A stretch of 64,000 nucleotides of DNA, from sequence record MK327933.1; one strand, written 5' to 3'. How positions within the stretch are numbered: the stretch's first letter is position 1; the number at the start of each line of letters is the position of its first letter. A program made the translations under genes and the position numbers. The notes below the pieces were generated by a model. The model did no database searches and was not told the DNA's origin. It worked only from the letters and a program-made list of their open reading frames with translations. Source of the stretch: Escherichia phage vB_EcoM_G2285. Of this stretch, positions 35,054 to 39,243 are shown piece after piece.

Positions 35054-35294
35054 CTCGGTTCCATGATTTGGCCATTAATTCGGACATAAATTCTTCAATG
35101 CGCGTTTCTTTAGATGGACTTTCACTATCAGATATTTGGACCATATAATCAGAAATAGGTCGGAACATATCCAAGTCGCTTTCTAAATCTTCTTTGATTT
35201 TCTCTTCTGACGTTCCTGTATCATAGGAATACAGATAAGAATCACATGATTCTGATTTAATGTAAATTGCTATACTCATCTCAAATTCCTGCAT
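35043..35294 (-). CDS. Hypothetical small acidic protein
   Basis: 83 aa ORF. Confidence 0.45.
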   Translation of the reverse strand: MQEFEMSIAIYIKSESCDSYLYSYDTGTSEEKIKEDLESDLDMFRPISDYMVQISDSESPSKETRIEEFMSELMAKSWNRDDE

Positions 35295-35512
35295 TCGGTA
35301 ATAAAACGTTCAACTTCATTATTTTTGGCCTTTATCTTGTCTTTACGTTCCTGTAAACTACTTTTAACAAGATTAATAATGATGCCTACAGTACCTCCAC
35401 CAATTATACCGCCAATTATACTTACGATAGTAGATGCTAATAAGATAGCAATAATATCTAGTACGGCAAAGGCACTTACTTTAGTACTAAAAAAACCATA
35501 CCGATGGTACAA
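35276..35512 (-). CDS. Small membrane protein with C-terminal ERFITECR motif
   Basis: 78 aa; TM segment ILLASTIVSIIGGIIGGGTVGIIINL; C-terminus ...NNEVERFITECRNLR. Confidence 0.5.
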   Translation of the reverse strand: MYHRYGFFSTKVSAFAVLDIIAILLASTIVSIIGGIIGGGTVGIIINLVKSSLQERKDKIKAKNNEVERFITECRNLR

Positions 35513-35746: not shown

Positions 35747-36052
35747 TTATTTTCCTCGACATTCTTTAATGAAATTTTCTAGATTGGTAGATTCAATAGC
35801 TTTTTTACGAGCTTCTGCGTGTTCTTCTTCGGTCAATTTACGTTTATAATTGACCCAGACATTATGGTCGAAACTAGTCGTGGCATATAATAACAAAGCT
35901 CCGACGAATAATAAAAACGGTGATAAGAATACAAAACCAGGAACACCATCCATATCGTAAGCCTTTTGTAATACTGCAACAGAAAGGGCTGCGTAAAAAA
36001 GTGATGCAAATATTGTTAAAAGACCAATTCGGTTGGTTTCGCCTAATTTCAT
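35747..36052 (-). CDS. Small membrane protein with C-terminal ENFIKECR motif
   Basis: 101 aa; two hydrophobic helices; C-terminus ...STNLENFIKECRGK. Confidence 0.55.
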   Translation of the reverse strand: MKLGETNRIGLLTIFASLFYAALSVAVLQKAYDMDGVPGFVFLSPFLLFVGALLLYATTSFDHNVWVNYKRKLTEEEHAEARKKAIESTNLENFIKECRGK

Positions 36053-36121: not shown

Positions 36122-37078
36122 TTATTTGAAAGGTTTTACCATATGGAAATTTTGTTTGAAACGTTTGACGTAATCATCATGTCCTAAACTTTGGTACATA
36201 CTTACTACTTTGCGGTAGTTTTCCCAGGCATACTCACGAAACCAGCCAGAGGTGATGCTTGTACAGACTTTTTCTAATGCCATCATGAAACTGGCTTCAG
36301 GGTTAATTTTAAAGTCATTAGGAATTTGAGAACGTTCTAATGCTAGTACACATGATTCTTCGTATACACCGGCCAATTTGACCATTTCCGGTAATGATTC
36401 GAACTTCTCGCGTGAGGTCATGACTTCAGAACCGTCTTTCATATAAAATGTATACGCTGGACGGTCTGTTAGTGCAATGGCTTCGTGAATAGTATCATGG
36501 TCATATGTATAGATGTCATCTTTAAAGAACGCACTTTTAGAAGTGTCAAGAACCGGGTGAGCATAGTTCAAGGTTTCTTTCTGGCGTTTCAGCATAATTT
36601 CAGTAAGTTCATCGTTCAGTGTAACACCTTTACCACGAAGATACTGAATATGGTTCATAGTCTTTAAAAAGAATGGATTATTTTTCTTGAAACGATGAGA
36701 CATCTTAATTGCAAGGCACATCTCAGGAGTTGCCCAGTAAAACCCGTTCAAACGGTCTTTAGTCAAATTTTTCTTGGCGTATTTTAAAAGGTCATAAGAA
36801 GACGTGAAATCTTCAGGAGTGAGTTCACCGACTAATTCACGGACATTAGTAATTGCCGGAACAATATATGCTTCAAAATGAGTTTCGCGTCCGTTATGGA
36901 AGCATTTGAAAACTTGGACATCAGGGTTATCTTGGTGAACATATACACCCATCATTTGATTTTTGAATGCATTCCAAGAACATTGGTCCGCAATAAAGTC
37001 CCAATCGCTATTTTTGATAGCGCTAGAATCAATAAGACCGTGATAGTGAAGTGCACGAGAACCAATAACTAACATCAT
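36122..37078 (-). CDS. Hypothetical 318 aa protein with a weak nucleotidyltransferase-like N-terminal motif
   Basis: N-terminus VIGSRALHYHGLIDSSAIKNSDWDF loosely resembles GS...DxD; function unknown. Confidence 0.45.
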   Translation of the reverse strand: MMLVIGSRALHYHGLIDSSAIKNSDWDFIADQCSWNAFKNQMMGVYVHQDNPDVQVFKCFHNGRETHFEAYIVPAITNVRELVGELTPEDFTSSYDLLKYAKKNLTKDRLNGFYWATPEMCLAIKMSHRFKKNNPFFLKTMNHIQYLRGKGVTLNDELTEIMLKRQKETLNYAHPVLDTSKSAFFKDDIYTYDHDTIHEAIALTDRPAYTFYMKDGSEVMTSREKFESLPEMVKLAGVYEESCVLALERSQIPNDFKINPEASFMMALEKVCTSITSGWFREYAWENYRKVVSMYQSLGHDDYVKRFKQNFHMVKPFK

Positions 37079-37106: not shown

Positions 37107-37358
37107 TTAAATTTCACGACATGCGATATTATATTCATCCCAGAGGTCATCATATGAAGCCTCTACCAAAGGAACGATTGTACCGTTTATGTCTTCATTA
37201 TAAGGGCAAATTGTACAGTGCGCATCTTCGAATCGGATGCCTTTGTGTTCAGATTTTTTATAACGCATATCGAATATCTTTGCAAACTTTTCACGAGTAA
37301 TGGTTTTACTAACCAATTTGGTTCCGATACTTTCGTAATAAATCATTGTGGACTCCAT
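37107..37358 (-). CDS. Hypothetical small protein
   Basis: 83 aa ORF with CxxC pair (CTICPYN). Confidence 0.45.
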   Translation of the reverse strand: MESTMIYYESIGTKLVSKTITREKFAKIFDMRYKKSEHKGIRFEDAHCTICPYNEDINGTIVPLVEASYDDLWDEYNIACREI

Positions 37359-37366
37359 TTAATTTG

Positions 37367-37404
37367 ATAGGACTACTATAACATAGCCCTATCTTGTTGT
37401 AAAC
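37367..37404 (-). promoter_or_regulatory. Promoter/stem-loop cassette (PeSL-like)
   Basis: Palindrome ATAGGACTACTATAACATAGCCCTAT (37367-37392) plus minus-strand GTTTAC (37399-37404). Confidence 0.5.
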
Positions 37405-37408
37405 TGTT

Positions 37409-37606
37409 TTAGCAAGAATAACTAGATGATACCCAGCCTTGAACAGTGATACTATTGTGGGATAATGAGATCGCGTCCTGGAGATTCAGACCTGCGTTAT
37501 CTTCAATCCATAATGTAACTTCTTCGCGTTCTTCTGTTGCAATTTGGAACAGGTTTTCCAGAGCAGCTACTGCCGTACGTACAGCACAATCTAATTCACG
37601 AGACAT
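37409..37606 (-). CDS. Small protein ending in GWVSSSYSC
   Basis: 65 aa ORF; shares the C-terminal WVSSS-x-x-C tail with the adjacent ORF. Confidence 0.45.
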   Translation of the reverse strand: MSRELDCAVRTAVAALENLFQIATEEREEVTLWIEDNAGLNLQDAISLSHNSITVQGWVSSSYSC

Positions 37607-37615
37607 ATTGTTTCC

Positions 37616-37921
37616 TTAGCACAACGCAGAAGACGAAACCCAAGCACCTTCAGTAATAACGTAACCATTACCTTCACGCTTAACATCGCCACCATTATTT
37701 TCAATTTCATCTTTCATCCACTGGTATACGATTTCACCCTTAGGATAATAAGTACGACCGCTACCATAATCACCTACAGAAAATGATACGGCATATTGGT
37801 CTGCGATCTTTGTTGCTTCTTCTTCGATACGTTCAGCTTGATTCAGAAGTTTATAAATTGCATCTGAAGCGGATTTGGCATCATTAAACTCTGGTACTTT
37901 AATTTCAATAATCTTACTCAT
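37616..37921 (-). CDS. Small protein ending in AWVSSSALC
   Basis: 101 aa ORF; shares the C-terminal WVSSS-x-x-C tail with the adjacent ORF. Confidence 0.5.
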   Translation of the reverse strand: MSKIIEIKVPEFNDAKSASDAIYKLLNQAERIEEEATKIADQYAVSFSVGDYGSGRTYYPKGEIVYQWMKDEIENNGGDVKREGNGYVITEGAWVSSSALC

Positions 37922-38277
37922 TTTCTACATTCCTTAATAAAGTTTTCGATTGTTTCATTTTCACGTCTAGCTAAGAGTTCATTATAACTAATCATTTGAG
38001 AAGCGTAAACCTTTTTATTTTTCTTGTTATGGTTTATAAAATCGTAGTAAAAATAGACTACAGTACAAAATGATGCGATGGATGCAAAGGCTTGGGTATA
38101 CCGTAAGTCCTGCCATTGGTCTGTGAATCCACCAGTGTTCCCTATAAATCCTAACACAACGCCATCAATAAGAAATCCAACTAATCCAAAGGCAAATCCC
38201 ATGCCAATACTCATAATAAAAATTAGAATGTTCTCACCAAGAGAAGGCCATATGGTTAAGAGTTGAGGCTTTTGCAT
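37918..38277 (-). CDS. Small membrane protein with C-terminal ENFIKECR motif
   Basis: 119 aa; hydrophobic N-terminal half; C-terminus ...RENETIENFIKECRK. Confidence 0.55.
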   Translation of the reverse strand: MQKPQLLTIWPSLGENILIFIMSIGMGFAFGLVGFLIDGVVLGFIGNTGGFTDQWQDLRYTQAFASIASFCTVVYFYYDFINHNKKNKKVYASQMISYNELLARRENETIENFIKECRK

Positions 38278-38651
38278 CTTATTTCCTTAACGAATTCCAT
38301 AGCTTCTTCATATTCATACTTTTTAACAGCCTCGTCATATTGAGCTCTTGCTTTTGCACATTGAATTTTCCATTCGCGTACTCGAGCTCTATAATGACGT
38401 CCTTGGTACCAATATCCCACCCAGTTAATAGGCATTAATAAAAATGGCACAATAAACGACCCGGCTATAATAAGTAAAAACACTGCATCAGACGATATAA
38501 CTTCACTAGAATCTAAAACAGCTCCTATAATCATAAAGATTAAAAATGCTAAAGCTAAAATAGGGCCAAATAGTACTTCATTTGGGATTAATTTACGCTT
38601 GTATTCATACGCCCAGGGCTTAATTGGCATGTACAGGGTTGGCTTTGACAT
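38256..38651 (-). CDS. Small membrane protein with degenerate C-terminal EFVKEIRC motif
   Basis: ORF 38256-38681, start probably MSKPTLY at 38651; two TM helices; C-terminus ...EEAMEFVKEIRCKSLNS. Confidence 0.5.
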   Translation of the reverse strand: MSKPTLYMPIKPWAYEYKRKLIPNEVLFGPILALAFLIFMIIGAVLDSSEVISSDAVFLLIIAGSFIVPFLLMPINWVGYWYQGRHYRARVREWKIQCAKARAQYDEAVKKYEYEEAMEFVKEIRCKSLNS

Positions 38652-39243
38652 ATTCTCTACATTCCATAATAAATTGCTCAAGGATTAAATTGTTAGTGAA
38701 ATTAGGACTAACAACCATGGTTTCATAAAGCGCATCAATAGCACTTAAAGCATCAACTCTTTTAAGCAAAGGCTTGCCTTCATACATAGTTTCAGAATCG
38801 ATGATTAACGTAAAGTAATATTTTTTATTATCGACTAGAACTTCTGTATCGATATAAAACATATTAGACCTCAGAAGCTTATCTCTAAAACCATAATAAT
38901 CTTCAGAGCGTTCGCTGATATATTCCCATTCAGTGTTTAAACAACAAACAGACCATGTAGGAGCAACGAAATCAGTGAATCTAATATCATGGTCTGCAAC
39001 TAGTTTAGCAATAGCTCCGATATCATGAATCATAATACCTGGGGCTAATAAAGATTTTCTGCTATGGCCGGCCGTTTTCTCGGTGGTCTCATAAGAAGAC
39101 GACCAGTACCATTTACGTCCAGTTGCAACATATCGTAATGAATCAACTAAAGACGTAGGTGGATTTACCTTATCTCGGAACTCTTCGAACATTGAGTCAA
39201 TATCATTATTTTGGTTTCGCATGTTAACTCCTTTATTATCCAA
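38620..39243 (-). CDS. Hypothetical protein with C-terminal EQFIMECRE motif
   Basis: 207 aa ORF; C-terminal ...LILEQFIMECREYVKANPVHAN. Confidence 0.5.
   Translation of the reverse strand: MDNKGVNMRNQNNDIDSMFEEFRDKVNPPTSLVDSLRYVATGRKWYWSSSYETTEKTAGHSRKSLLAPGIMIHDIGAIAKLVADHDIRFTDFVAPTWSVCCLNTEWEYISERSEDYYGFRDKLLRSNMFYIDTEVLVDNKKYYFTLIIDSETMYEGKPLLKRVDALSAIDALYETMVVSPNFTNNLILEQFIMECREYVKANPVHAN

Follow-up and report, generated by a model that had tools for sequence, protein, structure and literature searches.

A conserved C-terminal serine-cysteine tail on small acidic phage proteins is linked to a predicted nucleotidyltransferase gene in Escherichia phage vB_EcoM_G2285 and in many other large phages

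The described systems nearest to the one reported here are MenAT and AbiE (MenT1-MenA1, MenT3/TglT-TakA and AbiEii-AbiEi) together with HepT-MntA, each of which pairs a nucleotidyltransferase with a small protein encoded by a neighbouring gene. MenT enzymes are described as adding nucleotides to the 3′-OH of transfer RNA (tRNA) under the control of small neighbouring MenA proteins (PMC11375011, PMC10435456). MntA nucleotidyltransferases AMPylate a tyrosine hydroxyl of the adjacent HepT (PMC7641770). Here we report a nucleotidyltransferase module in a stretch of 64,000 nucleotides of Escherichia phage vB_EcoM_G2285 (sequence record MK327933.1), referred to throughout as the window. The window matches RB69 with 97% identity over 3.3 kilobases (kb) and can therefore be assigned to an RB69-like, T4-type phage of the genus Mosigvirus. 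Two adjacent open reading frames (ORFs) for small acidic proteins of 65 and 101 amino acids (aa) share the C-terminal tail that ends QGWVSSSYSC in the first and EGAWVSSSALC in the second, and both lie upstream of a gene for a 318-aa predicted nucleotidyltransferase. The tail defines a family with the motif (G)-x-W-x-S-S-S-x-x-C, in which Cys is the last residue, and arrays of tail-bearing genes accompany homologs of the same enzyme in many other phages; that both the family and the module of tail array plus nucleotidyltransferase are real seems to us very probable.

Compared with the MenAT and AbiE systems, the phage enzyme lacks any sequence match to DUF1814 or to the PADLOC models, and it carries an additional helical C-terminal domain of ~190 aa, DUF7275, with its own invariant set of His, Asp, Arg and Cys residues. 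The phage arrays contain up to six partner genes rather than one, the C-terminal W-x-S-S-S-x-x-C of the partners is not known in MenA or AbiEi, and the module is found in lytic phages rather than in bacterial chromosomes. HepT-MntA offers the precedent for the mechanism that we propose below for the Ser-Ser pair of the tail, in that a Pol-beta-type enzyme covalently nucleotidylates a hydroxyl side chain of its neighbour (PMC7641770). However, the acceptor in HepT is an internal Tyr, whereas the proposed phage acceptor lies in a C-terminal Ser/Cys tail, and MntA is a minimal enzyme with the motif GS-x10-DxD (PMC7641770), whereas the phage enzyme has 17 residues between G6-S7 and D25, a length of 318 aa and an extra domain. 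Nor do the small phage proteins resemble a HEPN partner, as the 101-aa protein has no His at all (and hence no R-x4-6-H) and a Pfam search found no HEPN match in the small proteins. The ANT and Lnu enzymes, aminoglycoside and lincosamide O-nucleotidyltransferases for which the acceptors are hydroxyls of antibiotics, differ in that ANT(2'') and LnuA act on small-molecule substrates and have neither a DUF7275 domain nor associated small proteins.

A further point of comparison is the set of phage MNT-like enzymes described by Ho et al. (bioRxiv 10.1101/2022.06.09.495361), which make competitor cyclic dinucleotides against TIR-STING. These Pol-beta-type nucleotidyltransferases share a catalytic SDxD motif (SDWD in phage BCP1), and the window enzyme likewise has S24-D25-W26-D27; their genes lie in early or anti-defence neighbourhoods with nicotinamide adenine dinucleotide (NAD)-salvage and methyltransferase genes, and some homologs of the 318-aa enzyme lie in similar ones. 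Membership of that family was nevertheless rejected. Against the family pattern GS-x-AY[GAN]T-x4-SDxD, the window enzyme reads GSRALHYHGLIDSSAIKNSDWD, with no AY[GAN]T and with 16 residues between GS and SDWD. The NP-x-h2-[DE] motif found ~60 residues past SDxD in the described enzymes is likewise absent, the sole NP of the window enzyme (NNPFFLK, residues 132-138) lying ~107 residues past D27 in a segment that ends in K. Ho et al. reported no tail-bearing small proteins.

Both ORFs singled out by an earlier, sequence-only reading of this DNA are present as described (Table 1) and are encoded on the minus strand, with C-termini that read ...TVQGWVSSSYSC and ...TEGAWVSSSALC and end in GWVSSSYSC and AWVSSSALC, respectively. 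Of the 1678 stop-to-stop segments in the whole window that reach 20 aa or more, only these two match the pattern W.[SA]S...C$. Given the amino-acid composition of the window, the chance of such a tail at any given C-terminus is 2.9e-7, so that ~0.0002 tails are expected among its 726 ORFs of at least 35 aa, and ~1e-10 for two that are adjacent. The tail is encoded by TGG GTA TCA TCT AGT TAT TCT TGC in the 65-aa gene and by TGG GTT TCG TCT TCT GCG TTG TGC in the 101-aa gene; these differ at synonymous sites and in the Ser codon family used (AGT versus TCT for one Ser), which argues for selection on the peptide rather than a repeated stretch of DNA. We also rejected the idea that the tail owes its conservation to a ribosome-binding site or start codon lying in the same stretch, since inspection of the codons showed that they overlap no downstream signal of either kind.

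Outside the tail the two proteins differ, as the sequence-only reading had maintained. BLASTP aligned only their last 39 residues (33% identity, expectation value (E) 0.003), hhalign of the two family profiles aligned only the last 14-20 columns, and removal of the last ten residues from the profiles left an hhalign P of only 0.035. Iterative hidden Markov model (HMM) searches with tail-less bodies united 168 of 196 in one superfamily, but all 15 bodies that belong to the 65-aa type stayed outside it. The body of the 101-aa protein belongs to this main family (E 1e-27 against the main-family HMM; PHROG 899 match at E 1.6e-22), whereas the 65-aa protein, even with its tail kept, gave just weak two-segment matches to the same HMM at E 0.07 and represents a short tail-bearing type whose body has no detectable relation to the main family. 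Common ancestry beyond the tail was considered on the strength of collinear helix and tail HMM matches and of two “bridge” sequences that fit both HMMs; it was discarded, the signal having disappeared once the tails were removed. Each protein has its own orthologs, which reach Enterobacter and Klebsiella phages at ~60% identity for the 65-aa type (36 homologs found) and Aeromonas phages for the 101-aa type. In 15 aligned sequences of the 65-aa type W58, S60-S62 and C65 are invariant, and residues 1-21, which form a helix, are nearly so and are the most conserved part of the protein. These comparisons indicate that the pair is ancient and that the tail alone is common to both proteins. The suggestion of a recently diverged pair thus does not survive, given the separate orthologs across genera, the different tail codons and the lack of detectable homology between the bodies minus their tails. 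The sequence-only reading had also proposed a search for the same tail in related phages, and this yielded hundreds of further occurrences, whereas a lack of them was part of what it had named as refuting the idea.

A profile search of 1.84 billion representative proteins returned 59 matches, nearly all of 75-120 aa. In all 51 full-length matches that end in Cys, the last residue is preceded by W at position -8 and by S at both -5 and -4; S at -6 occurs in 44 and G at -10 in 41 of them, while mean column identity in the 49-sequence family alignment is just 27%. The usual architecture begins with a long N-terminal helix, which closes with EAE-x-IAD-E, and continues with a block F-x-F...YG-x-G-x-TYYPKG, a variable linker rich in acidic residues and the tail; the proteins are very acidic (median isoelectric point 4.4). 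The 101-aa protein is a long member with this layout, in which the block reads GDYGSGRTYYPKG and the tail AWVSSSALC. The spacing of the motif varies, with W-x-[PS]-S-S-C in 29 and W-Y-S-S-S-x-x-x-C in 7 of 175 unique proteins, but the Cys is always terminal while its distance to the Ser pair is 0, 2 or 3 residues. Many acidic linkers contain internal copies of the motif, in which WESSD, WVSSGC and DFDSSGC recur; for example, one protein runs DFDSSGC-DFDSSGC...HWLSSSESC and another DWVSSGC-EWESSD...GWVSSSANC. The occurrence of the tail on bodies that are not detectably homologous, together with these internal repeats, suggests that it behaves as a short functional motif more than as an element of a fold. 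In 65 of the 175 unique proteins the terminal Cys is the sole Cys, which excludes a conserved intramolecular disulfide. Neither small protein gave a meaningful match to Pfam, NCBIfam or PADLOC, the family profile retrieved only chance matches to designed helical proteins among the sequences of the PDB, and a Foldseek search of the PDB with a model of the 101-aa protein found nothing below E 0.8. In the literature, no paper was found under the names of the RB69 ORFs or under DUF7275 and DUF7277, and searches on phage MenT-like enzymes found no description of a tail module. As far as these searches reach, the tail family, its motif and the module appear not to have been described before.

The linkage of the tail genes to the enzyme gene holds in both directions. 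Synteny was examined in 80 viral contigs with a gene homologous to that of the 318-aa enzyme; 74 of these contigs carry tail ORFs, between one and six each, with one more recognised by eye (75/80). All 176 tail ORFs lie on the strand of the enzyme gene, compared with none among 4708 opposite-strand ORFs, and they are almost always just upstream of it, with a median end 884 nucleotides away. For the window pair, the ends of the tail genes lie at 37409 and 37616, upstream of an enzyme gene on the same (minus) strand that begins at 37078. Five distant phages show tail genes followed by a homolog of the enzyme in the same order (phmmer E 1e-79 to 1e-143), and the Yersinia phage fHe-Yen9-01 has four tail members in tandem. 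The arrangement recurs in Otagovirus, Phapecoctavirus, Acinetobacter Twarogvirinae and Aeromonas phages and in contigs of 355-371 kb, and it spans unrelated lineages (Straboviridae, Stephanstirmvirinae and Otagovirus) in which the flanking genes differ. In the reverse test we took seven distant tail proteins as the starting point, and a DUF7277/DUF7275 gene was found ~1 kb or less downstream in all six contigs long enough to show it. The two components are also absent together, since T4 has neither the enzyme nor tail ORFs and its e.2 and e.3 genes abut at the site that the module occupies in phages of the RB69 type. We regard the family and its linkage as solid, and the mechanism set out below as a hypothesis.

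The 318-aa protein contains a Pol-beta nucleotidyltransferase fold with the motif G-[GS]...D-x-[DE]. G6-S7, D25-x-D27 and E69 are invariant in the alignment of its family, and Foldseek placed its AlphaFold2 model (predicted local distance difference test (pLDDT) 90.2) closest to MenT1, followed by Cid1, CCA-adding enzymes and terminal uridylyltransferases (TUTases). On the basis of these structural matches and the conserved catalytic residues we predict that it is a Pol-beta-type nucleotidyltransferase resembling MenT and ANT(2''). At the level of sequence, a Pfam search with 34 members of the enzyme family at E <= 1 identified DUF7275 and DUF7277 only, and not DUF1814/AbiEii, and the PADLOC models gave no match at E <= 10. 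The DUF7275 domain found no structural match, and the C-terminal part of the enzyme gave only a weak NCBIfam match to HisJ-type phosphatases (E 0.003, 17 bits versus a cut-off of 90). The invariant residues of DUF7275, which lie within residues 125-281 of the protein (K125, H128, R165, H174, D193-H194-D195, H198, E248-R249, C272 and R281), look like a second active site or a metal-binding site. Five residues, R165, H174, C272, S277 and R281, are invariant in all 79 homologs outside the tail-less group and all changed in two tail-less actinophage homologs. This set would fit a tail-binding site, and is a weak lead that is confounded by phylogeny and rests on those two sequences.

No feature other than the tail is found in every one of the small proteins of the module. 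We propose that the tail is the element by which the enzyme recognises them, as a substrate or as a docking peptide. We put this forward tentatively, with somewhat less than even confidence. The tail would couple each small protein to the nucleotidyltransferase, with Trp and the terminal Cys or its carboxylate docking at the enzyme and the invariant Ser-Ser pair supplying hydroxyl groups to which a nucleotide monophosphate is transferred. Through their variable bodies the paralogs could then take on different downstream roles, for example the binding of different host targets early in infection. Nucleotidylation of serine specifically is a narrower claim, which we would offer only as a possibility on the unlikely side. 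The sequence-only reading had listed a modification signal among the functions that the tail might have, and this part of it is favoured, indirectly, by the invariance of the tail, by its two-way linkage to a nucleotidyltransferase gene and by the transfer of nucleotides to hydroxyl groups by fold relatives of the enzyme.

Several observations weigh against recognition of the tail by the enzyme. The chief one comes from the AlphaFold2 model of the 101-aa protein (pLDDT 93.5, and above 90 through residue 100), in which the tail is placed with high confidence within the folded structure, residues 93-96 forming a strand and 97-100 a terminal turn. The tail could therefore be conserved for structural reasons, and if buried it would serve poorly as a substrate. 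Five loci, four of which belong to one clade, have an apparently intact enzyme gene but lack a tail ORF within 3.5 kb; the enzyme can thus occur with no tail genes next to it. Furthermore, synteny alone cannot separate a substrate from a regulator or a co-effector. We note separately that Q or E replaces the otherwise invariant D193 in the enzymes of the four-member clade. Among more distant relatives, no tail genes were found with a roseophage homolog (26% identical) or with the actinophage homologs, in which the BLAST match is confined to the C-terminal domain.

The small proteins might instead be MenA-like regulators, or “antitoxins”, whose N-terminal helix binds the enzyme and so inactivates or retunes it, with the tail serving as a fold element or a secondary contact. 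MenT1 is the best structural match of the enzyme, and in MenAT1 the small neighbouring protein controls the toxin through an N-terminal alpha-helix, according to the report on that system (PMC11375011). The position of the tail genes upstream of the enzyme gene would suit such a role, as would the long conserved EAE-x-IAD helix with which the proteins begin and which is their most conserved part in the 65-aa type. However, there are up to six divergent paralogs per enzyme gene where a toxin would have one antitoxin, and it is the tail, not the helix, that is common to all subfamilies. In sequence the proteins resemble neither MenA proteins nor the PADLOC models, and a toxin-antitoxin pair has no obvious use in a lytic phage. 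We consider a regulatory role rather unlikely, though far from negligible.

Alternatively, the tail may be purely structural, forming the last beta-strand and a capping turn of small proteins that act alone and might, for instance, inhibit host proteins or serve as acidic decoys, with the enzyme a mere neighbour in an early gene cluster. The ordered strand and turn of the AlphaFold2 model are what this explanation would predict, some enzyme homologs do lack nearby tail genes, and the acidity of the family is shared by many phage inhibitor proteins. It is harder to see how folding would maintain an invariant Cys at the very last position with no conserved disulfide partner, as the single-Cys proteins illustrate, or why the same tail should appear on bodies without detectable homology and in internal repeats. 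Linkage of the tail genes to the enzyme gene in several unrelated lineages with differing flanks, and also in the reverse direction, speaks against it as well. A tail of structural significance only is thus a doubtful explanation, if still one to be taken seriously.

Maturation of the kind seen in ribosomally synthesised and post-translationally modified peptides (RiPPs) would involve conversion of Ser to dehydroalanine and addition of the terminal Cys to it, giving a lanthionine- or AviCys-type thioether ring, with the enzyme providing the activation step. Lanthipeptides use a C-terminal S-x-x-C arrangement for C-terminal thioether rings, and both window proteins have S-x-x-C at the extreme C-terminus (S62-Y-S-C65 and S98-A-L-C101), with Cys last as in lanthipeptide and AviCys precursors. 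Several precursor-like genes beside one enzyme gene also recall a RiPP cluster, and the variable spacing between the Ser pair and an always terminal Cys would be compatible with ring closure. On the other hand, Pfam and PHROG searches of the eight ORFs between 35747 and 39243 found no LanB, LanM, LanKC, LanD or YcaO-type domain and no cyclase, and in the gene lists of the other loci no dehydratase or LanD-type decarboxylase accompanies the module. To our knowledge no nucleotidyltransferase acts as a dehydratase. The conserved “core” and variable “leader” are the reverse of the pattern typical of RiPP families, and the proteins are predicted to be folded domains. Such maturation therefore appears very unlikely. 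A version that joins it to the proposed nucleotidylation, in which the nucleotide on the tail Ser of an array of small acidic effectors would act as the leaving group to give dehydroalanine and the terminal Cys would close the thioether ring, is likewise a long shot; if true, it would represent a nucleotidyltransferase-driven, lanthionine-like maturation of folded phage proteins and a type of post-translational modification system new to phages.

The sequence-only reading had further proposed that the tail is a degradation or targeting signal, that is, a degradation, localisation or export tag read by a host machine. Short C-terminal motifs often act as degrons, but we know of no bacterial degron or export signal with the sequence of the tail, inspection of the proteins revealed no signal peptide and no hydrophobic segment, and a tag of this kind would leave the tight two-way linkage to the nucleotidyltransferase unexplained. 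Nothing in the analysis supports degradation or export, and we give these explanations little credence. The adjacency of the genes and the similarity of their tails might suggest that the match arose by chance or was left behind by gene conversion or a recent tandem duplication, but this is already refuted by the ~0.0002 expectation per window, the different codons, the separate orthologs across genera and the hundreds of further occurrences.

The coordinates of the module and of neighbouring features are collected in Table 1. An 83-aa ORF separates the tail genes from the nucleotidyltransferase gene. It has a single homolog across five other loci, at an unrelated position, and is lineage-specific and probably not core to the module. 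This ORF, which is absent from the module in other lineages, carries C-x-x-C (HCTICPY) and another Cys close to its end, and it may encode a small zinc-binding protein. Comparison with the RB69 reference (AY303349, 5617-6205) showed that a frameshift there splits the 101-aa gene into ORF139c and ORF138c and that RB69 has a third tail member, ORF137c (...GGWVASSHTC), between the two genes; the window lacks ORF137c and has an intact 101-aa gene. The content of the array therefore varies even between close relatives.

Table 1. Positions in the window of the tail genes, the nucleotidyltransferase gene and nearby features of vB_EcoM_G2285.
Feature	Position	Strand	Remarks
Gene with E-x-F-[IV]-x-E-C-[RK] end	35276-35512	minus	
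Gene with E-x-F-[IV]-x-E-C-[RK] end	35747-36052	minus	
318-aa predicted nucleotidyltransferase gene (DUF7277 + DUF7275)	36122-37078	minus	RB69ORF134c; conserved partner of the tail genes
83-aa ORF	37107-37358	minus	PHROG 3723, no function assigned; between tail genes and nucleotidyltransferase gene
Sigma-70-like promoter match TTTACA-17-TATAGT	37375-37403	minus	Consensus match only; between 65-aa gene and 83-aa ORF
65-aa acidic protein gene	37409-37606	minus	RB69ORF136c; ORF; PHROG 4882; tail GWVSSSYSC
Tail codons W58-C65 (WVSSSYSC) of 65-aa protein	37412-37435	minus	Codon view; stop codon 37409-37411
101-aa acidic protein gene	37616-37921	minus	ORF and translation; PHROG 899, no function assigned
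Tail codons W94-C101 (WVSSSALC) of 101-aa protein	37619-37642	minus	Codon view; stop codon 37616-37618
Gene with E-x-F-[IV]-x-E-C-[RK] end (e.3)	37918-38277	minus	
Sigma-70-like promoter match TTTACG-17-TATAAT	37981-38009	minus	Consensus match only; inside e.3, upstream of 101-aa gene
Gene with E-x-F-[IV]-x-E-C-[RK] end (e.4)	38256-38681	minus	
Gene with E-x-F-[IV]-x-E-C-[RK] end (e.5)	38620-39243	minus	

A second C-terminal motif, E-x-F-[IV]-x-E-C-[RK], occurs within the last 25 residues of five neighbouring minus-strand genes, which encode mostly small predicted membrane proteins, and nowhere else among 369 ORFs. In e.3, e.4 and the gene at 35276-35512 the codons for this FIKECR-type motif include both the ATG of an overlapping gene downstream and its Shine-Dalgarno sequence. 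Translational coupling thus accounts for the motif at least in part, and paralogy for another part. In other phages, with eight loci as the examples, the flanks of the module often contain RNA-repair, tRNA and NAD-salvage genes, for example RNA ligase 1 or 2, a polynucleotide-kinase-like ATPase, the peptidyl-tRNA hydrolase Pth2, clusters of tRNA genes, NAMPT with Nudix, and Sir2. Flanks of this kind would be consistent with an enzyme that acts on RNA or tRNA, or with an island for counter-defence.

Users of these genomes should be aware that depositors' names for genes of the region are inconsistent in GenBank, where “sulfurtransferase” and “host specificity protein” have been attached to genes of this stretch. 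For the enzyme, the record of Klebsiella phage vB_KpnM-VAC36 has “prohead assembly scaffold protein” and that of Acinetobacter phage AM101 “putative nucleotidyltransferase”. Only the last of these names fits the result of the fold comparison. The tail motif itself provides a very specific handle for annotation searches, with no match among the 4708 opposite-strand ORFs.

DUF7277/DUF7275 proteins are encoded in at least 733 sequenced phage genomes and form more than 2,200 clusters at 90% identity in the protein database. DUF7277, DUF7275 and the tail families have had no assigned function, and one concrete hypothesis now covers all three. The module differs from known systems in the architecture of its enzyme, in its multi-copy arrays, in the C-terminal motif and in being carried by lytic phages. 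Should the tail prove to be a site of nucleotidylation or docking, the module would be a new protein-modification module of many large lytic phages, acting early in infection. A role in host takeover or counter-defence is likely.

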